The translations under genes were made by a program, and so were the position numbers. Below, in pieces: positions 6,422 through 43,521 of a stretch of DNA of 53,413 nucleotides. The notes below the pieces were generated by a model. The model did not search any database, was not told the origin of the DNA, and saw nothing but the letters and a program-made list of their open reading frames with translations. Where the stretch lies: IMG/VR virus record IMGVR_UViG_3300023116_000063, positions 1 through 53,413 of that record, one strand, 5' to 3'. Positions within the stretch are counted from its first letter, which is position 1. The number at the start of each line of letters is the position of its first letter. Source of the stretch: a virus (Duplodnaviria > Caudoviricetes).

Positions 6422-6823
6422 CTAATGTATAAGCTTAGAGTCTGGACTACCAAACTCCTCATCCCATTGTTCCTCAACAATATCATCTAATTCTCTATTG
6501 GTGGGAGCTCCAGTTAATACATCTTCATCCTCCAATCTAGATTTACTAACACAATACTCATAAAACTTTGATAACCCATAAGAGGCCTCAGTAAGTACGA
6601 TGATTTGAGACTTGGGGATATCATATGTGTTGGTTTTAGCAAAGTGAATCCACCTTTGTAAAGACAAGGCTTCTTCTATACCATTTCTTGTTGCTTTTGG
6701 ATATGAATTTAATTTCATAGGAGAGGTTACACTAAGATAGGGTGAATCTAAAGACTGAACAACATCACAAATAATCTCTTCACCACTAGACAGCTTTAGT
6801 ATTTTTATATTATTTTCTGTCAT
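6422..6823 (-). CDS. Conserved hypothetical protein (possible Sm-like fold) between uvsW and gp55
   Basis: 'KILKLSSGEEIIC' N-terminus and a position typical of marine T4-like phages. Confidence 0.7.
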   Translation of the reverse strand: MTENNIKILKLSSGEEIICDVVQSLDSPYLSVTSPMKLNSYPKATRNGIEEALSLQRWIHFAKTNTYDIPKSQIIVLTEASYGLSKFYEYCVSKSRLEDEDVLTGAPTNRELDDIVEEQWDEEFGSPDSKLIH

Positions 6824-8295
6824 TTTAGTTTTATCCTTTTAATTTCATAATCAAATTGCTCTTCATTATAGATATTTATTCGTTCCATGAAATGGTTAAT
6901 TGTAAAGTTTCTTTTTGATTTATAGGTGAGGTCATCAGCAATATCAAAGAGGATAGCGGAATCCTTAGTTTCACTCCTACGCAATCCACGGCCAATTGAT
7001 TGCAAGGTACGAACTCTGGACTTACTTGGACTTGAGAACACGATGTTGTGAAGATTCCTAATGTTAATACCAGTAGAAAACGTGCCATAAGATGCAACGA
7101 TAATGGCATCCCTCTCTTTTTCTGTAATTGCACGAATATCCTCTCTGGTTTGGGTGTCAGTACCACCAAACACATAAAACACTTTTCTATCTGTGTTAGA
7201 CTTAATCATATCATAGATAACACTTCCATGTTTCTCTACAAATTGAAATAACACCAGTGTATTGCCTTTTAGTGCCAATGTCAAGTCTTTTATAAATTCA
7301 TTTCTTTTTGGGTGTGTAACAATAAAATCAATTTCATCTTGATAGTTCATATCCTTTACGAGTTTACACTCATGTTCTGGATATGTTAAGACTAGCGCCC
7401 TAATCTTAAATTCAGCTAGTGTCTTTTCATCTATCAGTTCTTTTGTTGTAATAACTTTATTAAGTGTTCCAAATAATCCTTCTAGTACTAGGCGATGCGT
7501 TTGCATACCATCCAGTGTACCAGTTAGTCCAAACCTATATTTACACAAATGAAGTTTTGTAAGAATTGAAGTAAGAGATTTTGCCTTAAATAAATGTGCT
7601 TCATCACCAATCACACAACCGAATTGTTCAAAGTAACTCTTAGGAAACTTGTAGATAGATTGCCATGTCGATATAACAACTGGTTTCGTTACTTGTTTAT
7701 CATGTCCACTGTAAATCTTCTGCATATAAGCTTCTTGCCATCCATAGTCGATAAAATCAGAATACATCTGTTCAACCAGAGATGTTGTCGGAACAAGAAT
7801 AAGGATTTTGTCTTGTTGGGTTTCTTGTAATAGTAATTGATAATACCTTACCAGAATATAGATTATAAGTGACTTACCAGAAGCGGTAGGACTAAGAAGA
7901 AGGGCCCTATGATTTCGGATAGCATAATCCACGGCATCAATTTGATAATCACGAGGTTTGATATTTCTTCCACTGGATCGAAGTCTAAGTTGTCTAATGT
8001 ATCCATCAAGAGTTGGTCTGTCGATTGTTTTTTCATTTTTTAGTTCCTCACTTATTGTAAATTCTTCTTCATAATCTGTCAAATATTTTTGTAAATATGG
8101 CAGTAATCCAAGATAAAGTTCTCCTGTTGATGGAGAAAATAGTCTAATCTTTCCATCCCAAATACGATTTCGATACGCAGGCATAAAACGAGCGCCAGGA
8201 ACTTCAAACGTAAAGAAGTCAGAAATCGCCCTTGCAGTTGAGGGTTCAGTTTCTACTTGTAGGTATACTTCATTCTTTTTGGTGATTATGGTCAT
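6820..8295 (-). CDS. uvsW: UvsW DNA helicase
   Basis: PTASGKS, DEAH, GLTGT and QSIGRGLR SF2 motifs; WDGKIRLF. Confidence 0.96.
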   Translation of the reverse strand: MTIITKKNEVYLQVETEPSTARAISDFFTFEVPGARFMPAYRNRIWDGKIRLFSPSTGELYLGLLPYLQKYLTDYEEEFTISEELKNEKTIDRPTLDGYIRQLRLRSSGRNIKPRDYQIDAVDYAIRNHRALLLSPTASGKSLIIYILVRYYQLLLQETQQDKILILVPTTSLVEQMYSDFIDYGWQEAYMQKIYSGHDKQVTKPVVISTWQSIYKFPKSYFEQFGCVIGDEAHLFKAKSLTSILTKLHLCKYRFGLTGTLDGMQTHRLVLEGLFGTLNKVITTKELIDEKTLAEFKIRALVLTYPEHECKLVKDMNYQDEIDFIVTHPKRNEFIKDLTLALKGNTLVLFQFVEKHGSVIYDMIKSNTDRKVFYVFGGTDTQTREDIRAITEKERDAIIVASYGTFSTGINIRNLHNIVFSSPSKSRVRTLQSIGRGLRRSETKDSAILFDIADDLTYKSKRNFTINHFMERINIYNEEQFDYEIKRIKLK

Positions 8296-8837
8296 TTAAA
8301 TTTAGGCCCAAGTACCCATCCAACTAAACTTTTGCGTACACCTTTAGTAATTGGTCTTACTCTATGCCAATAGTGCGATTGAAAGAAAAAACCAGTATTT
8401 GGTTGTCTTTTAATTGTTGTATATCTTTTTTCTTCCTGTGGGTTTCCTGTTTCTATATCAAACTCACCACCTTCATAATCATCATTCAGAAAAATAGAGA
8501 AACTAATCTTCCTCACTCTACCATCATCATATGGTTTGTTGTGTTGGTCAATATGCCATCCAAACTCATCTTCAACAGAATACTCTGCATATTGTAGTGG
8601 TTCGATAACATCAATATGAAAATCCCACCCAGCATTTTTATTTGCCGCTTGTGCATATTCCAAGAATGTTGTTAAAACATCTTTATCATTAATCCAATCA
8701 ACCTTAGTGCTTCTACGAACTTGTCCACTCGCACCCACTATCTTTGCGTCCTCTAACTGAGTATTAACTTTTGCGAGAGCTTTAGATATGGTTATTGCAC
8801 CAATACGTTCAATGATGTATGGTTGACAATACCTCAT
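8292..8837 (-). CDS. 2OG-Fe(II) oxygenase (prolyl-hydroxylase-like)
   Basis: WHID...RKIS...YEGGEF...HRVRP...RKSLVGW (HxD...H...R). Confidence 0.9.
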   Translation of the reverse strand: MRYCQPYIIERIGAITISKALAKVNTQLEDAKIVGASGQVRRSTKVDWINDKDVLTTFLEYAQAANKNAGWDFHIDVIEPLQYAEYSVEDEFGWHIDQHNKPYDDGRVRKISFSIFLNDDYEGGEFDIETGNPQEEKRYTTIKRQPNTGFFFQSHYWHRVRPITKGVRKSLVGWVLGPKFK

Positions 8838-9262
8838 ATCGCCCCATCCACAAATTTACGCCATTCAATTGCGTTTTTAATATCCCAACCACGAGACTGA
8901 ATTTGTTTCAGAATCCGTTCACAGGAATCTTGACACATCTTATAGTATTCTACTTTCTGTTTTGCTTTGATGAGTTCTTCATCAGAATCCAGATAAAGTG
9001 GAATGTCTTGTTTTAAAATTTTGTAGTCAAAGGGATTATCACGATAGACTTCTGGCGATGCTTTACCACCATAGTATTCCCACTTCTTACGTTTGAGTAC
9101 ATTGTAAGTACCCTCATTCATAAGAACGAGTTGTCTAAAGTTATTGTAGATGGTTAGATATTTTTGATGTAGACTTGCAGACCTAAGTGATTCATCACCA
9201 AGTTCTATATTGTCGATTTCTAAGTCTTTTGCGGCCTGAGCCTGTAGTTCTTCAAGTGTCAT
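8834..9262 (-). CDS. uvsY: Recombination mediator UvsY
   Basis: LHQKYL, YY.GKA, and C-terminal RGWDIKNAIEWRKF. Confidence 0.92.
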   Translation of the reverse strand: MTLEELQAQAAKDLEIDNIELGDESLRSASLHQKYLTIYNNFRQLVLMNEGTYNVLKRKKWEYYGGKASPEVYRDNPFDYKILKQDIPLYLDSDEELIKAKQKVEYYKMCQDSCERILKQIQSRGWDIKNAIEWRKFVDGAI

Positions 9263-9289
9263 TATATTTCACATCCTAATAATAAAAGT

Positions 9290-9376
9290 GAGCAGAGTGG
9301 GTTGTAACTTGCGTTACTATATTATCTCTTTAAAGAGACTCAAACTATGATTGTCCAAGTCAACCATTGTCTGCTC
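9290..9376 (-). ncRNA. Candidate multi-stem structured RNA / uvsY leader
   Basis: Closing stem GAGCAGA/UCUGCUC encloses three hairpins, one with a GCAA tetraloop. It begins 4 nt after TATAAATA (9381-9388). Confidence 0.55.
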
Positions 9377-9383
9377 GGTATAT

Positions 9384-9944
9384 TTATAAAGTTTCAAATT
9401 CGTAAAAATCGTATTTAAAACTTGCAGTTGCCGTTAGTTGTTCTGTGTCAGTAACCTGTGTATTATATGTCAATCCAGAAAGAGAGTTAGGATAACAATT
9501 TTTGAAATTCACTCTGAGTGTTGGATTATTTTTATTTGTAAGAAGTGTGAGACTTGCATCAGAAGCCATAGTATTGGGATTAGTTAAACTTGATGTATTA
9601 GGTCTCAATTCAGAATTTTCTGAAGATGCAGTTTTAAACTGTTCAGTATCTTTTGGAAAACCAATTCCAGTAATCCAATCATGTACTTCACGATAGTTTG
9701 ATAAATCTTCATTCACAAGGAATGTTAATTCTAAATCTTCAAATTCAAGTGTATCTCCCATTAGAGCAATACTCTTAAAACGTGTATTCATATTTGCTTC
9801 ACCACTAAAACTAATGCCAGGCAAGTTTACAGATGTAACAAAATATTCTACGTTAGGTGTTTTCAACAAATTAAATCTAAACTGAGTCGGTGATGCAAAG
9901 TCTAGATTATTTGGTTGTCGTGCAAGTGGATTAAGTTTTACCAT
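9384..9944 (-). CDS. gp3: Tail tube terminator / tail completion protein
   Basis: gp19-like fold motifs (P.VEYF...NLPGI, F.V.EDL.NY.E...WI, F...YP.SLS), downstream of gp23. Confidence 0.85.
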   Translation of the reverse strand: MVKLNPLARQPNNLDFASPTQFRFNLLKTPNVEYFVTSVNLPGISFSGEANMNTRFKSIALMGDTLEFEDLELTFLVNEDLSNYREVHDWITGIGFPKDTEQFKTASSENSELRPNTSSLTNPNTMASDASLTLLTNKNNPTLRVNFKNCYPNSLSGLTYNTQVTDTEQLTATASFKYDFYEFETL

Positions 9945-9973
9945 AGTTTTCTTCCTTTATAGTATTTATAAAG

Positions 9974-10003
9974 AAAAAAGGGGGAGAGCAAAAGCCCTCC
10001 CCC
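9974..10003 (-). terminator. Rho-independent terminator after gp23
   Basis: GGGGGAGGGC-TTTT-GCTCTCCCCC followed by TTTTTT; a late promoter TATAAATA follows at 9963-9970. Confidence 0.9.
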
Positions 10004-10031
10004 AAGTTCAGAAACAAGTTTCTTATTATTA

Positions 10032-11315
10032 TTACATGATGTTCGTAACTTGAACTCTTCTGTAATATACGTTGTCGTTAGCAGTGATTGCACCACTTCT
10101 GACTGTAGCACCACCAGCAAATGGGTTTGCAGTAAGACCATAACGTGTCTTGAAACCAATTTTTGGCTGGAATGTGTTCTCACCAACTGCACGAACCATC
10201 TGAAGTGGAACGTATGGGCAGTAGAAGATACCAGCATCGTATGGTGAAGTACCTTTGTATCCAACAACAAAGAACTGCTTTGCGGCAGCGTTTGCTGAAT
10301 ATGGATCAATGTACACTTTGTAACGTCCGTTAAGAACACCAGCAAATGTGTTACCAGCATCGTCAACTGACAAGTTGTTGTTAAGAGCAGGGGATGTATC
10401 CAACTGTCCGGCCATCTGAAGTGCAGAAGCAACATCAGAAGAACAGATAATCATGTTACCTTTACCTCTACGAGTTTGCTGAGCGATTACGTTTGCTTCT
10501 CTCTCAACTTGGAACATAAGTCCTTTGAACTTCTCAACTGACCATCTACCGTTTGAATCAACGTCCATGTCAAAGATACCAGCGTTTGCAGTATCAGCTT
10601 GGGCACCGATTTTAGCAGATGTATAAACAGTTCTAACAACTTCTCTGTTGATTTCGTTAAGAATTTCACCAGAAAGAATGTTAGCAAGTTCTGTTTCTGC
10701 GTCAAGACCGTGAATTGCTTTAAGGTCTTGTGCAAGTTCCATTGTATATTCTGCTTTAAGAGCTCTTGACTTTGCAGTAACAGAGTTCTTCTCAATTGAG
10801 AAAGACATTTCTGCAAAAGAGTTACCAGCAGAGTCACCCAATGCTTCTGCAGCAGCAGTTGTCATACCAGTACCATTGGTGTATGTACCAGCAGGAGTGT
10901 CATTCAAGATAGCAGGGTTTGTACCAGCTTGTGTACCAGTACCAGAGAAATCTGAGTCTGCTTCGTTGTAGAATGTTTCTGTACCTGTCTGTGATGCATA
11001 GCGTGAACGCATTGCAAAGATAAGTCCAGTTGGGCCTGTCATAGGTTGAACGCCAGCAATATCATAAGCGATAAGGTTTGGCATTGCTCTACGGACTAGA
11101 GAGATTAGGATCGGATCCCAATTATCTACACTAGCACCTGTAGCGTTAGTTGGTGCAGCTTCGCCGAGGAAACCTCTATCTTCACGAAGTGCTTTTTCTT
11201 GGTTTTCTAGGATAATCGTGGTTACAGCCTTACGATAAGAGTCCTTGATCTCTGGAAGATCGTTGTGCTCTAGTACTGGCTGCCACTTTTCCTGTAGATG
11301 TTCTGCTTTGAACAT
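10032..11315 (-). CDS. gp23: Major capsid protein
   Basis: LVRRAMPNLIAYDIAGVQPMTGPTGLIFAMR, KSRALKAEYT.ELAQDLKAIHGLDAE, FYCPYVPL. Confidence 0.99.
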   Translation of the reverse strand: MFKAEHLQEKWQPVLEHNDLPEIKDSYRKAVTTIILENQEKALREDRGFLGEAAPTNATGASVDNWDPILISLVRRAMPNLIAYDIAGVQPMTGPTGLIFAMRSRYASQTGTETFYNEADSDFSGTGTQAGTNPAILNDTPAGTYTNGTGMTTAAAEALGDSAGNSFAEMSFSIEKNSVTAKSRALKAEYTMELAQDLKAIHGLDAETELANILSGEILNEINREVVRTVYTSAKIGAQADTANAGIFDMDVDSNGRWSVEKFKGLMFQVEREANVIAQQTRRGKGNMIICSSDVASALQMAGQLDTSPALNNNLSVDDAGNTFAGVLNGRYKVYIDPYSANAAAKQFFVVGYKGTSPYDAGIFYCPYVPLQMVRAVGENTFQPKIGFKTRYGLTANPFAGGATVRSGAITANDNVYYRRVQVTNIM

Positions 11316-11391: not shown

Positions 11392-12615
11392 TTAGTCTTT
11401 TGCCCGCTTTACATTTTTACTGATTGCTGCCATGTAAGCAGACATTGCACCAGTTGTATCGAAAGATTCTGAACCATCAGTTTCAGAGTCTACAGATTCA
11501 GCGATAGTGGTTGCCTTTGGAAAATAACTTTCCTTAAGCGTGTCGAGTTTACTTCTGAAAGAACCTTCATCTGTAAAATCTACATCTTCTGCAAGAGACT
11601 TGAACTTCTCTACCTCTGTATCGGCGAGGTCAGAAGCGACTTCTGCAAAGACTGATTCACGAACCAATTGGTCATTCTGCTTTTTCATTGCAGCAGTTTT
11701 TTCAATCTGTTCGTTGAGTTTTGCTTCAAGTTCGTCAATCTTTTCAGACTGAGTTCCTAGAATATCATACTTCTCGTCTGGAACATCAATGTAATGCTCC
11801 TCAAAAAGTGATTTAAGGCCTGAAATGAAATCTTCAGCAATCTCACCTTTGAGACCTCTTTCGATTGCAATTTCGTTCTCTTTCATCCACTCTTCTACAA
11901 CGTAGTTCATGTATGCGTCAACTTTTTCAGTCAACTCATCACGCACTCTATTGATTTCTTCAGCGATTTCTTGAGTTTTTGCTTCCTCAATTCTTTCAAC
12001 TTCAGAACGAAGTTTAGATTTAACAGCAGCCTCAAAAATTGTTGATGCCTTTTCTTTGAATTCTTCAGTAAGTTCCTCACCCTCTACGAGAGCAGTAACA
12101 TCTTCAGAAACGTCTACAGATGCAAGACGGTCATCAAGAGTAGATTCGTCAACTGACTCATCTTTCTTTTCCATTGAACCGTAACCTTCACCGTTACACA
12201 TTGCTTCGTATGCTGCCTTGAGATCTTGGGCTTTCATGCTTTCCATCTTCTTCTGCATTTCTGCCTTCATCATCTCTTTAGTCATCTTACCTTCTTCTAG
12301 TTCCTCACCATCGTGATCTACTTGATCACCAGCAGCAAGGGGTTCTTTAATTGCAGTTGGAGTATCATTTCCACCGGCATCTTTTGCACCTTTAGTCTGA
12401 GCATCACTGGCCTTCTTTGTTGCTTTCGCACCATCTGGGCCCTTTGCTGTCTCTGGACTTTCAACTGCTTTGCCTAGGTCTTGAACTTCCCCATCTACTT
12501 TTTCCATTGAGTCGCCTTTAGCAGCACCCTTTGTTGGGGCGTCCTGTGCAGCTTCTTCAAGTTCTGCTTGGACTTCCGCTTCTAGTTCCTCAATTGTCTT
12601 GTCTAGTTCTGACAT
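11392..12615 (-). CDS. gp22: Prohead core scaffold protein
   Basis: Acidic coiled coil, FKEKA.TIFEAAV, Y.NYVVEEWM.EN; between gp21 and gp23. Start MSELDK. Confidence 0.93.
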   Translation of the reverse strand: MSELDKTIEELEAEVQAELEEAAQDAPTKGAAKGDSMEKVDGEVQDLGKAVESPETAKGPDGAKATKKASDAQTKGAKDAGGNDTPTAIKEPLAAGDQVDHDGEELEEGKMTKEMMKAEMQKKMESMKAQDLKAAYEAMCNGEGYGSMEKKDESVDESTLDDRLASVDVSEDVTALVEGEELTEEFKEKASTIFEAAVKSKLRSEVERIEEAKTQEIAEEINRVRDELTEKVDAYMNYVVEEWMKENEIAIERGLKGEIAEDFISGLKSLFEEHYIDVPDEKYDILGTQSEKIDELEAKLNEQIEKTAAMKKQNDQLVRESVFAEVASDLADTEVEKFKSLAEDVDFTDEGSFRSKLDTLKESYFPKATTIAESVDSETDGSESFDTTGAMSAYMAAISKNVKRAKD

Positions 12616-12658
12616 TGGGATTTTCTCCTTGAGTTGTCTATTAACATATTTATAATGA

Positions 12659-13306
12659 TTAAAGTTTTGACAAGAATTTTGCAAATGCGAGGGCGGAAAC
12701 ATTAGATTGTTTCGCTCTTACACCTTCATTAATCTCATCTTTGATGTTTTGAATCTCTACTTCTTTAAGTAGTCCGTTATCCCAAACCCACTCTTTACCT
12801 TCCATGATACCTTCAACGAAGGCCTGAGGTGCAGAAGGGTCTGCAACAATATCTGCCGCAGTGGCAAGATAAAAATCATCTTTCACATAGTTTGCACCAC
12901 CTCTATTTTCAAGTGAACCCATACCTCTTGAAGAGACACCAAGTTTACCACCATCTTTGATTAGTGCTTTCGCAATTTCCCCCATTGGAGTAGAGAGCAG
13001 TTTCGCCTCACCAATAAAGTTCTTTCCATCAGCTTCCAGTTTTGTGATCATGTGCGATACCCTGTCAAGATTGACAGTGGGGCCTTCTGGATGACCCAGT
13101 TCCCCAAACGCACGACCTTCAGCAACAAATTCTTTATTATATCGAGCGACTTCTTTATTAAGTACGCCCATAGGGTAGACACGACCATTACGGTTTTTCA
13201 TGTCTGCCTGCATGAAGATTCCACGAATCTTCATATCTTTTCCACCACCGTCTTTTTCTTCAACGATGTATTCTACTTCTTGTATTTGTTCTGCGATAAG
13301 TTTCAT
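12659..13306 (-). CDS. gp21: Prohead protease
   Basis: GIFMQ...NRNGRVYP, GELGHP, GVSSRGMGS, DIVADPSAP. Confidence 0.97.
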   Translation of the reverse strand: MKLIAEQIQEVEYIVEEKDGGGKDMKIRGIFMQADMKNRNGRVYPMGVLNKEVARYNKEFVAEGRAFGELGHPEGPTVNLDRVSHMITKLEADGKNFIGEAKLLSTPMGEIAKALIKDGGKLGVSSRGMGSLENRGGANYVKDDFYLATAADIVADPSAPQAFVEGIMEGKEWVWDNGLLKEVEIQNIKDEINEGVRAKQSNVSALAFAKFLSKL

Positions 13307-18099: not shown

Positions 18100-18219
18100 C
18101 TTTGTTTTCTCCTTTATGGATTCATTATAATTATTAAGTTTCCAAACTTACATGAATATTTATAAAAAACCTTTTCTACACTTGATTTTTTATAGGTTAA
18201 GCAACACATAAATAGTTTT

Positions 18220-21874: not shown

Positions 21875-22291
21875 TTACTTTCCCTTTAACATCTTTTGTA
21901 GTTCAGCAGTGCTTCCAACAAATAATGCATTTGTTACGTTCTGAGGAGCAGAATTAGGAACTTCTTTGAGTTTCTTCATCTTTGCTTGCAAATCACCCAA
22001 TTTCTCCGTGACTTCTGCCACTTGTTTAATCAAGTTCCCAGCAACCTCATAGGTTCTTGGGTGTTCTGATTCTCTTGCAAGGTCTAGAATACCATCAATG
22101 GCATCCTGTCCTCTTTCGATAAGATTATAAAAGTTCTCTCGTTGATATTTATAATCGTTATCTATATCTTCTTCATTTAGTTTTGTTTCTGGAACAAGAA
22201 CAGGTTTTGGTGGAGTAACATCCTTTACTGCCAAAACCTCTGGTTCTGCTATTCCTAAAACATTATCTAAAATGTCAGTCTGATTGCTCAT
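21875..22291 (-). CDS. gp16: Terminase small subunit
   Basis: DY.Y.R.N.Y.LIE.G, HPR.YEVAG.LIK, NALFVGSTAELQKML. Confidence 0.93.
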   Translation of the reverse strand: MSNQTDILDNVLGIAEPEVLAVKDVTPPKPVLVPETKLNEEDIDNDYKYQRENFYNLIERGQDAIDGILDLARESEHPRTYEVAGNLIKQVAEVTEKLGDLQAKMKKLKEVPNSAPQNVTNALFVGSTAELQKMLKGK

Positions 22292-43294: not shown

Positions 43295-43521
43295 TATTTC
43301 TTATCCATCATTTGCATTAATAGAGATTTAATTTCATGCATCTCTGACTTTAGACTATTTATATCTCTTACTGCATCCCTTAGTTCATCTTTACTCTTTT
43401 GTACAGCACGAGAACGTGCAACTGCGGCTTCATATGCAGCCATATTAGTATTCACAATACCACGAGAATTAGTATCTCTTGCTAAGTCTGGATGATTTTC
43501 TACTTTGATATATTCTGTCAT
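43294..43521 (-). CDS. Conserved small coiled-coil protein
   Basis: IKVE.HPDL.RD..S..IVN, LKSEM.EIKSLL; immediately follows the giant baseplate-region gene. Confidence 0.72.
   Translation of the reverse strand: MTEYIKVENHPDLARDTNSRGIVNTNMAAYEAAVARSRAVQKSKDELRDAVRDINSLKSEMHEIKSLLMQMMDKK

Follow-up and report, generated by a model that had tools for sequence, protein, structure and literature searches.

A covarying RNA element between a T4-type late promoter box and uvsY in Melnitz-like marine phages

A structured RNA directly after the late promoter box of uvsY

The complete IMG/VR record IMGVR_UViG_3300023116_000063 (53,413 nt, completeness estimate 37%; the whole stretch is called the window here) carries on its minus strand a single ~87-nt element between a gp3-like tail gene and the recombination gene uvsY, directly after a T4-type late promoter box, and the same element recurs at the same site in relatives of Methylophilales phage Melnitz. 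Compensatory base changes among 52 distinct versions leave us with little doubt that the element is a real, selected RNA structure of the sense strand, and they reveal that one strand of its inner part is shared between two helices that exclude each other. A preliminary description of this site, made from the letters alone, had proposed a cloverleaf-like, undescribed RNA between gp3 and uvsY; its location directly after the promoter box was confirmed, while the fold was revised as set out below. The parts of the element and its immediate surroundings in the window are as follows.

9381..9388, minus strand: T4-type late promoter box TATAAATA, overlapping the TAA stop of the gp3-like gene
9370..9376, minus strand: 5' strand of P1, GAGCAGA (ViennaRNA fold), starting at the predicted +1 or no more than about 2 nt from it
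9290..9296, minus strand: 3' strand of P1, UCUGCUC (ViennaRNA fold and alignment)
9362..9365, minus strand: 5' strand of P2, GGUU, of which only the outer GG/CC part is general
9300..9303, minus strand: 3' strand of P2, AACC, pairing with GGUU
9356..9362, minus strand: S1, UGACUUG, 5' strand of the long-range helix Px, holding the invariant ACUU and also forming the 5' arm of hairpin 1
9305..9311, minus strand: S4, CAAGUUA, 3' strand common to Px and hairpin 3
9313..9317, minus strand: S3, GUAAC, 5' arm of hairpin 3, pairing with GUUAC (9304-9308) and rivalling S1 for S4
9324..9339, minus strand: apical hairpin H2 (hairpin 2 of the preliminary description), (GU)CUCU-UUAA-AGAG(AU)
9338..9360, minus strand: hairpin 1, ACUUGGAC-AAUCAUA-GUUUGAGU, present in the window, not conserved as a helix
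9263..9289, minus strand: variable A/U-rich linker with Shine-Dalgarno AGGA at 9274-9277, ahead of the uvsY AUG at 9262

P1, P2 and the three hairpins first drawn at 9290-9376 (minus strand) are all present as written and equal the ViennaRNA minimum-energy fold of 9290-9378 (minus strand), a cloverleaf-like arrangement of -26.3 kcal/mol that none of 200 shuffles matched (-14.6 +/- 2.8 kcal/mol; z -4.23). Folding with flanks (133 nt) gave z -2.52, and the opposite strand gave z -2.01. The box also stands 4 nt ahead of the element, TATAAATA at 9388-9381 being followed by TACC and then by GAGCAGA (9376-9370).

A scan of the whole window with the 4227 models of Rfam 15, which include hammerhead, hatchet, pistol, twister, purine, glnA, manA, wcaG, Y RNA and 6S, returned no match at gathering score; within 9230-9420, with E values up to 10 admitted, only three matches appeared, all at chance level (E 3.9-7.1, 13-18 bits against gathering scores of 50-94). 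The earlier suggestion of an undescribed RNA is supported by the scan, which holds no credible family match. A likeness of 'GCAAGUU.CUACC' to a purine-riboswitch junction was not borne out, the scan being without such a match. The idea of a tRNA mimic found no support: ARAGORN found no tRNA or tmRNA gene in the window, and the junction sits atop P1 and P2 and not directly on a 7-bp acceptor stem. Like tRNA, the element is closed by a helix of 7 bp, and the minimum-energy fold of the window's own version has three hairpins round a junction; unlike tRNA, it is without T-loop, anticodon arm and CCA, and its hairpin 1 is not conserved.

Covariation identifies the selected helices

The 52 distinct core sequences derive from 226 locus instances, many of them repeat fetches of the same contigs, and were aligned with MAFFT in a structure-neutral manner (alignment A3). 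On this alignment, 92% of the cells of the whole structure were paired, compared with 85.2% in shuffles, and 13 pairs changed on both sides compared with 8.3 (none of 500 shuffles reached 13). The covariation score of 0.235 strengthens this observation further: shuffles gave 0.129 +/- 0.008, and sliding the 3' partners by 1-3 columns never gave more than 0.060.

The terminal helix P1 was 94% paired with two-sided change in four of eight pairs (G-C in 46 and A-U in 6 sequences; C-G 42 and U-A 10; A-U 51 and G-C 1), and divergent clades carry the versions GUGAACAGGG/CCCUGUUCAC and GAGUAGG/CCUACUC. In P2, the GG/CC portion was paired in 85.6% of cells with both pairs compensated; the inner two pairs lack this generality, with 19 U-A and 23 unpaired sequences at column 24/97. 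The apical hairpin H2 (89% paired, loop of 3 to 10 nt) showed two-sided change in five of six pairs, including whole-stem replacements such as UUCCA/UGGAA (L004), GUCCU/AGGAC (L075), UUUCUU/AAGAAA (clade N, loci L186-L195) and UCUU/AAGA (L450). The long-range helix Px, which pairs UGACUUG (9362-9356) with CAAGUUA (9311-9305), was chosen by RNAalifold and was 93.7% paired on A3; its core ACUU:AAGU is invariant (52/52), while the next inward pair is G-C in 22, U-A in 16, A-U in 10 and unpaired in 4 sequences, and the outer pair is G-C in 22, U-A in 10, A-U in 4, G-U in 2 and other in 14.

The cloverleaf as first drawn is not what the relatives conserve. Hairpin 1 was 78% paired without a single compensated pair among its eight, 12-25 sequences being unpaired at five of the eight positions, and RNAalifold returned a different fold; within its GAGU, the G and U covary instead with the 3' side of H2 (column 49/74: G-U 30, U-A 7, A-U 4, G-C 2). 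The hairpin 3 loop base that had been left unpaired covaries with the base after ACUU. The proposed selection on RNA is upheld by the covariation in P1, Px and the middle hairpin, and an all-against-all scan for other covarying pairs, for example a pseudoknot in the core, gave convincing two-sided change in P1, Px and H2 only. As for the strand, one half of the original argument stands: G-U to A-U exchanges at three pairs (e.g., Px G-U 24/A-U 23) fit the sense strand only and thus place the structure on it. The other half is not supported, as the GNRA loop of hairpin 3 occurs in the window's clade only, other clades having AGAAA, AGCAA, UGCAA or AGUAA.

Two pairings compete for one strand

Hairpin 3 uses the same 3' strand as Px. 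Most clades build its arms as GAAC/GUUC, while the window's clade has GUAAC/GUUAC and clade N has AAAAC/GUUUU; the corresponding column count is G-C 36, A-U 4, G-U 2 and other 10, the last being the window's clade, shifted by one column. Changes in S4 are matched in both partners, and we therefore read the inner part as two pairings competing for one strand. Specifically, where GUUC became GUUAC in the window's clade, the Px strand became UGAC (U-A, G-U) and the hairpin arm GUAAC; where GUUC became GUUUU in clade N, the Px strand became AAAC and the hairpin arm AAAAC. In constrained folds, the predicted energies of the two conformations differed by at most 2 kcal/mol in 37 of 51 sequences, hairpin 3 being favoured in 30 and Px in 21.

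Distribution and linkage to uvsY

A UvsY-anchored fetch from IMG/VR gave 80 loci with UvsY identity of 80-100%, and the element followed TATAAATA in all 76 of these first loci that have both gp3 and uvsY (the Melnitz locus L001 counted). After a second fetch it was present in 153/153 loci with at least 170 nt upstream of uvsY, and among further loci it was present in 57 of 59, the remaining two being without upstream DNA. The third and fourth fetches added the divergent clade N, which was held out when the covariance model was built on 46 of the 52 sequences. This model found the window's element with 94.8 bits as the sole credible match in the 53-kb record (a single copy) and the Melnitz element with 87.7 bits as the sole credible match in that 141-kb genome. 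The held-out clade scored 44-47 bits (E about 1e-8 to 1e-9) and shows compensatory changes of its own in P1, H2, Px and hairpin 3. Throughout the 52 versions ACUU, CA, A..A..UA.A..G and AAGU are invariant, so that the most conserved bases are those of the apical domain. Melnitz is the closest named relative of the window, with 69% DNA identity over gp3-uvsY and 84.5% identity in UvsY.

Because these fetches were anchored on UvsY, a motif-first search was also made, with a pattern that covers the TAGAAC subtypes only. It gave at least 120 pattern matches, of which 78 newly fetched loci were scored with the model; two further listed matches (L054 and L069) were loci already in the set. Among the matches listed, 61 were confirmed by the model (E 1e-14 or better), with uvsY directly downstream in 61/61 and gp3 upstream in 59/61, the other two being without upstream DNA. 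A pattern search in bacterial and archaeal genomes gave at least 120 matches, of which 80 were model-scored; the best of those listed, L328 with 23 bits, is a chance match, as it has neither P1 nor H2 and lies at the end of an open reading frame (ORF).

Outside this group the element disappears. It was absent from 80/80 loci (L240-L319) whose UvsY is 45-59% identical to that of the window, no model match was obtained in the whole records of four named relatives, cyanophages among them (B23, S-RIM14, P-SSM3 and IME-SM1; the gp3-uvsY spacer of B23 is only 25 nt), and an outward step with the UvsY of L122 as query gained no more distant carriers. Judged from these sequence comparisons, the element is clade-specific to Melnitz-like marine T4-type phages.

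In L240-L319 (e.g., L240, L246 and L251) the gp3-uvsY spacer is ~50 nt, and a near-consensus sigma-70-type promoter, CTTGACA/CTTTACA-17 nt-TATAAT, takes the place of late promoter and element; its -35 region, (G/A)ACTTGACA, is similar to ACTTG.ACA, which is invariant in the element. In L263 there is only TATAAATA, 15 nt ahead of the ATG. The sigma-70-like promoter of these distant relatives suggests that the element-bearing clade has rewired when uvsY is expressed.

The locus and its late promoters

The minus-strand gene order around the element is gp23, gp3-like gene, uvsY, 2OG-Fe(II) oxygenase gene and uvsW, with the following features.

10032-11315, minus strand: gp23 major capsid protein
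9384..9944, minus strand: gp3-like tail gene, 186 aa (PHROG 45, category tail, E 9e-34)
121 nt between the gp3-like stop and the uvsY start, minus strand: gp3-uvsY spacer
8834..9262, minus strand: uvsY, 142 aa (Pfam PF11056 UvsY, E 2.3e-35)
8292..8837, minus strand: 2OG-Fe(II) oxygenase gene, its start overlapping the uvsY stop (PF13640, E 2.5e-14)
6820..8295, minus strand: uvsW helicase gene, its start overlapping the oxygenase stop (PF21241 UvsW_N, ResIII, DEAD, Helicase_C)

Syntenic cyanophage counterparts of the gp3-like gene are annotated as 'tail completion protein' or 'similar to gp3'. The gp3-like gene has a separate TATAAATA at 9963-9970 (minus strand), which lies after an intrinsic terminator, GGGGGAGGGC-TTTT-GCTCTCCCCC plus a T-run, situated directly behind gp23 (9980-10003, minus strand); given this terminator and gp3's own box, each of these genes has its own late promoter.

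The window holds 10 copies of TATAAATA, all on the gene strand, compared with 3.5 expected for both strands together. Eight lie 18-61 nt before a start codon and one is internal to an ORF, while the uvsY leader measures 118 nt and is the longest among the nine late-promoter sites located 18-118 nt ahead of start codons. The spacer between TATAAATA and P1 is 4-5 nt in 52/52 distinct versions, and in L079 the box is retained although the gp3 stop sits further upstream. In T4, late promoters consist of an 8-bp TATA box that precedes the transcription start by about one helical turn (PMC2988020); with the 4-5 nt spacer, this rule places the predicted start on the first bases of P1.

Other late leaders longer than 50 nt in the window also fold (promoters at 419-426, 18157-18164 and 43356-43363, minus strand; leaders of 58, 57 and 61 nt), and those at 419 and 18157 begin with a hairpin no more than a few bases from the predicted start, GUGAUA...UAUCAC and UAAGUU...AACUUA, respectively. 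It may be that long late leaders of this phage generally open with a 5'-terminal hairpin. Two of the copies of the box lie within reading frames. The copy at 12647-12654 (minus strand), inside the 436-aa scaffold-like ORF 11392-12702, suggests that the true start of that gene is the internal ATG at 12615, 31 nt downstream of the box, and not 12702. For the copy at 22146-22153 (minus strand), which sits inside the 138-aa ORF 21875-22291 with the next start (21873) 272 nt downstream, there are two readings: a late promoter within the ORF that would give a long leader, or an occurrence by chance.

The linker and roles tried and rejected

Between the conserved element and the uvsY start lies a linker of 12-30 nt across relatives, predicted to be mostly unpaired, of which at least five unrelated types occur combined with different cores; it has thus been replaced beside an element that stayed conserved. 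The U-tract after P1 is not conserved either, being U-rich in some linker types only. The mean unpaired probability of positions -14 to +3 relative to the start codon was 0.63 in short and 0.56 in long transcripts over the 52 sequences.

Several conventional roles were examined and rejected. An inhibitory leader of the type found at T4 e, soc, 49 and I-TevI does not fit, since the difference between 0.56 and 0.63 is too small and the promoter lies upstream of the entire structure. Long transcripts of those T4 genes fold into a hairpin that occludes the ribosome-binding site, which transcripts from a late promoter within the hairpin leave free (PMC3014915); the uvsY locus is similar in having a late promoter and a leader structure beside a gene that is also reached by read-through, and unlike them its promoter is upstream of the whole element, so that late uvsY transcripts contain all of the structure. 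An intrinsic terminator was not found at the element, a scan of 8700-10200 flagging only the hairpin after gp23 (10003-9980). An internal sigma-70 promoter (TTGAGT ... TATAGT) is a 9-of-12 match at 9343-9316, a kind of site of which the scan gave 5 where 5.1 are expected; it was dismissed because its two motifs stand at a distance that follows the H2 loop, 16 nt in the window and 22 nt in L157, and its -10-like motif reads AAUUUAG in many clades. Lastly, a 16-codon frame inside the element (ATG GTT GAC ... ATA TAG; 9318-9368, minus strand) exists in the window's clade only: other clades lack the ATG (9368), and 1-nt indels break the frame.

The element in RNA libraries

Part of the stretch is contained in 16 runs recorded as RNA, and contigs were compared from four metatranscriptome runs of four studies. 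Contig X1 (9105-9364, no mismatch) joins the element to uvsY, X2 (9243-9418, no mismatch) runs from the gp3 end through promoter and element into the first 20 nt of uvsY, and a variant contig, X5, spans 9250-9447. Contig X6 (record 26) covers uvsY (8656-9294) and stops inside the 3' strand of P1, followed by six unmatched letters and Illumina adapter; in this single record, its end may reflect a fragment end at the base of P1. Gaps such as 9410-9625 in X1, like the X6 end at 9294, are not readable as transcript ends. Contig depth drops from hundreds at the gp23 end to single figures in gp3, and the summed depth, which includes other strains, is 100-1000 times higher at the gp23 3' end than in gp3 and uvsY.

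A tentative reading as a leader operator, and its rivals

Our favoured reading, which we put forward as the leading candidate while judging it to fall somewhat short of an even chance, is that the element is a ~87-nt cis-acting leader RNA at the predicted +1 of the uvsY/2OG-oxygenase/uvsW message, an operator or switch recognised by a trans-acting factor. Late transcription from TATAAATA would begin at the first bases of P1, so that the RNA would fold from its 5' end into a rod (P1, internal loop, P2 and Px) capped by a conserved junction bearing H2. The Px 3' strand AAGUUC could alternatively pair locally with the conserved junction strand UAGAAC as hairpin 3, which would give two nearly isoenergetic conformations, each exposing a different conserved single strand. 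Most likely, a trans-acting factor would recognise one conformation of the apical domain, which would make the element an operator, and would control, in whichever direction, translation and/or decay via the unstructured A/U-rich linker holding the ribosome-binding site. UvsY is a single-strand-binding oligomer. By analogy with the T4 gene 32 operator, the first candidate factor would be a phage protein, either UvsY itself or another single-strand-binding protein. Recognition by a factor is favoured over a purely passive hairpin because of the element's independence of the ribosome-binding site, the strict tie to uvsY, the predicted +1 start and the apical conservation. The riboregulator of the preliminary description is thereby kept as a cis-acting leader element, with its function stated conditionally.

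The following points weigh against this reading. In predicted folds the ribosome-binding site does not pair with the element (0.63 short, 0.56 long), and duplexes of the conserved single strands (J3/S3 and S1) with the linker and Shine-Dalgarno region were no better than with shuffled linkers (mean z -0.05 and +0.96), so that no expression platform is visible; in the modelled folds, P1 stays closed in both conformations. The start about 6-7 nt after the box is a prediction from the general rule. The RNA-library contigs speak for presence only, and not for ends, strand or level, and DNA carry-over may contribute to them. The support for bistability consists, at the sequence level, of two clade-level events, which are few, and the near-equal modelled energies would follow in part from both helices sharing one strand. 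Binding partner, ligand and regulatory output are all putative. We know of no autoregulation of uvsY in T4 itself. The T4 review (PMC3014915) has uvsY once, about polyadenylation only, and describes no uvsY autoregulation; binding by UvsY is proposed here by analogy.

Among the alternatives, the one that would need no sensed factor has an appreciable but clearly smaller share of our belief: the element may be a passive 5' stabiliser, with P1 shielding the late uvsY message from 5'-end-dependent decay, or a processing module, with the P1-P2-Px rod serving as a double-strand-specific RNase site that parts uvsY mRNA from gp3 read-through. The strict 4-5 nt distance from TATAAATA to P1 (52/52), the hairpins that open two other long late leaders near their predicted starts (promoters at 419 and 18157) and an accessible ribosome-binding site, as expected of an element that does not gate translation, are all consistent with a stabiliser, and the contigs that cross from gp3 into the element indicate that read-through molecules needing processing may exist. 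A stabiliser needs only its terminal helix, yet the most conserved bases are those of the apical domain (52/52), and neither it nor RNase III-type recognition explains the compensated competing pairing and the apical conservation. A closing helix, a conserved multi-strand junction with invariant bases, covarying stems and mutually exclusive pairings of near-equal energy, would suit an orphan riboswitch or physical sensor, with an ion or small molecule as the ligand of the apical junction, or with temperature acting on the two-state fold; in the bound state the RNA would shift the balance of S1:S4 and S3:S4 and alter late recombination gene expression. A glutamine riboswitch is reported from the same phage group in the Melnitz genome paper (PMC9004378). 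We nevertheless regard such a sensor as unlikely, since no expression platform was found (no terminator, ribosome-binding site unpaired), the gene context is single, the clade is narrow (80/80 loci with UvsY of 45-59% identity and four named phages are without the element) and none of the 4227 Rfam models matches. Equally improbable in our judgement is the broader proposition of a two-state RNA switch, be it a new riboswitch class or driven by protein or temperature, that sets UvsY and UvsW levels late while sensing the cell state or the replicating DNA pool.

Somewhat more doubtful still is a stand-alone, stable late RNA of ~90 nt, released by U-tract termination or linker cleavage and acting in trans, whether as a protein decoy (host or phage) or in counter-defence, with uvsY merely downstream. 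Stable non-coding RNAs typically have paired 5' and 3' ends, as the element does; the commonest linker types place a run such as ACUUUUAUUAUU behind P1, and the end of X6 at 9294 inside the P1 3' strand is a weak hint from a single record. Against this, the U-tract is missing in several clades, which carry ACCUUAUACUAUGG or GCCUAUAGGAUG, the terminator scan that finds a textbook terminator after gp23 finds none at the element, contigs of two other runs continue from the element into uvsY, and the tie to uvsY is strict (61/61 confirmed matches among those listed). Finally, a DNA-level or R-loop element, that is, a replication origin, primer-forming site or recombination site at the uvsY promoter, is one to which we give very little credence. 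At the T4 origin ori(uvsY) a promoter-proximal transcript primes replication, and uvsW in T4 is an R-loop helicase; the element lies at the same place, in the uvsY promoter region, with uvsW downstream. The promoter here is of the late type, covariation with one-strand G-U pairs is the signature of an RNA fold, nothing in this analysis indicates a DNA unwinding element, and an ordinary sigma-70-like promoter occupies this site in element-free relatives, all of which speak against it. A small remainder of our belief goes to explanations other than those named here.

Comparison with known systems and significance

The system closest in layout to the proposed operator is that of T4 gene 32, in which binding starts at a structured 5' site and extends along an unstructured A/U-rich region that covers the ribosome-binding site (PMC3014915). 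In both cases the leader belongs to a T4-type gene whose product is a single-strand-DNA-binding recombination or replication protein, and a structured domain is followed by an unpaired A/U-rich linker with the ribosome-binding site, a likeness of layout only (PMC3014915). They differ in that the gene 32 operator has a 5' pseudoknot and none was found in the uvsY element, which is larger (~87 nt, rod plus junction), lies at the predicted +1 of a late promoter and has no sequence or fold similarity to it. With riboswitch aptamers, including the glutamine (glnA) riboswitch reported for Melnitz (PMC9004378), the element shares a closing helix, a conserved junction, covarying stems, alternative pairings and the lineage, and unlike them it has no Rfam match, no expression platform that could be found, one gene context and a narrow clade.

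The Fremin et al. 2023 survey of IMG/VR, as given in its main text (PMC10690425), lists 10,006 candidate viral structured RNAs, for example 12 upstream of GP32. These resemble the uvsY element in kind and in source collection, being intergenic structures with covariation that immediately precede phage genes; the survey's criterion is at most 25 nt from the start codon, and the window's element ends 27 nt before the AUG (PMC10690425). That main text does not contain 'uvsY', and an unnamed listing in its supplementary lists, which lie outside the text searched, is possible. The text of the Melnitz genome paper that was searched (PMC9004378) likewise has no mention of uvsY and reports only the glutamine riboswitch and a tmRNA, and no description of such a structured leader element was found in full-text searches on uvsY and structured RNA, riboswitches or translational repression by leaders. 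We regard the element as a new RNA motif with no matching Rfam family.

To our knowledge, post-transcriptional control has hardly been described for marine T4-type phages. OM43 methylotrophs are the hosts of Melnitz-like phages, which are reported to be globally widespread (PMC9004378), and for T4 itself the 2010 review of post-transcriptional control notes the absence, at that time, of any functionally characterised riboswitch or small RNA acting in trans (PMC3014915). The uvsY element offers a testable case here, being short, single-copy and confined to one operon, with covarying stems and an unusual pair of compensated competing helices. Were it only a 5' stabiliser, it would still be a useful marker of late transcript starts in this lineage. 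A two-state switch would be the first sensor RNA known over recombination-dependent replication genes in any T4-like phage, and an operator or sensor would add a new RNA family to the databases. Should the element prove to be a UvsY operator or a sensor, it would reveal how Melnitz-like phages adjust the dose of recombination machinery at late times of infection.

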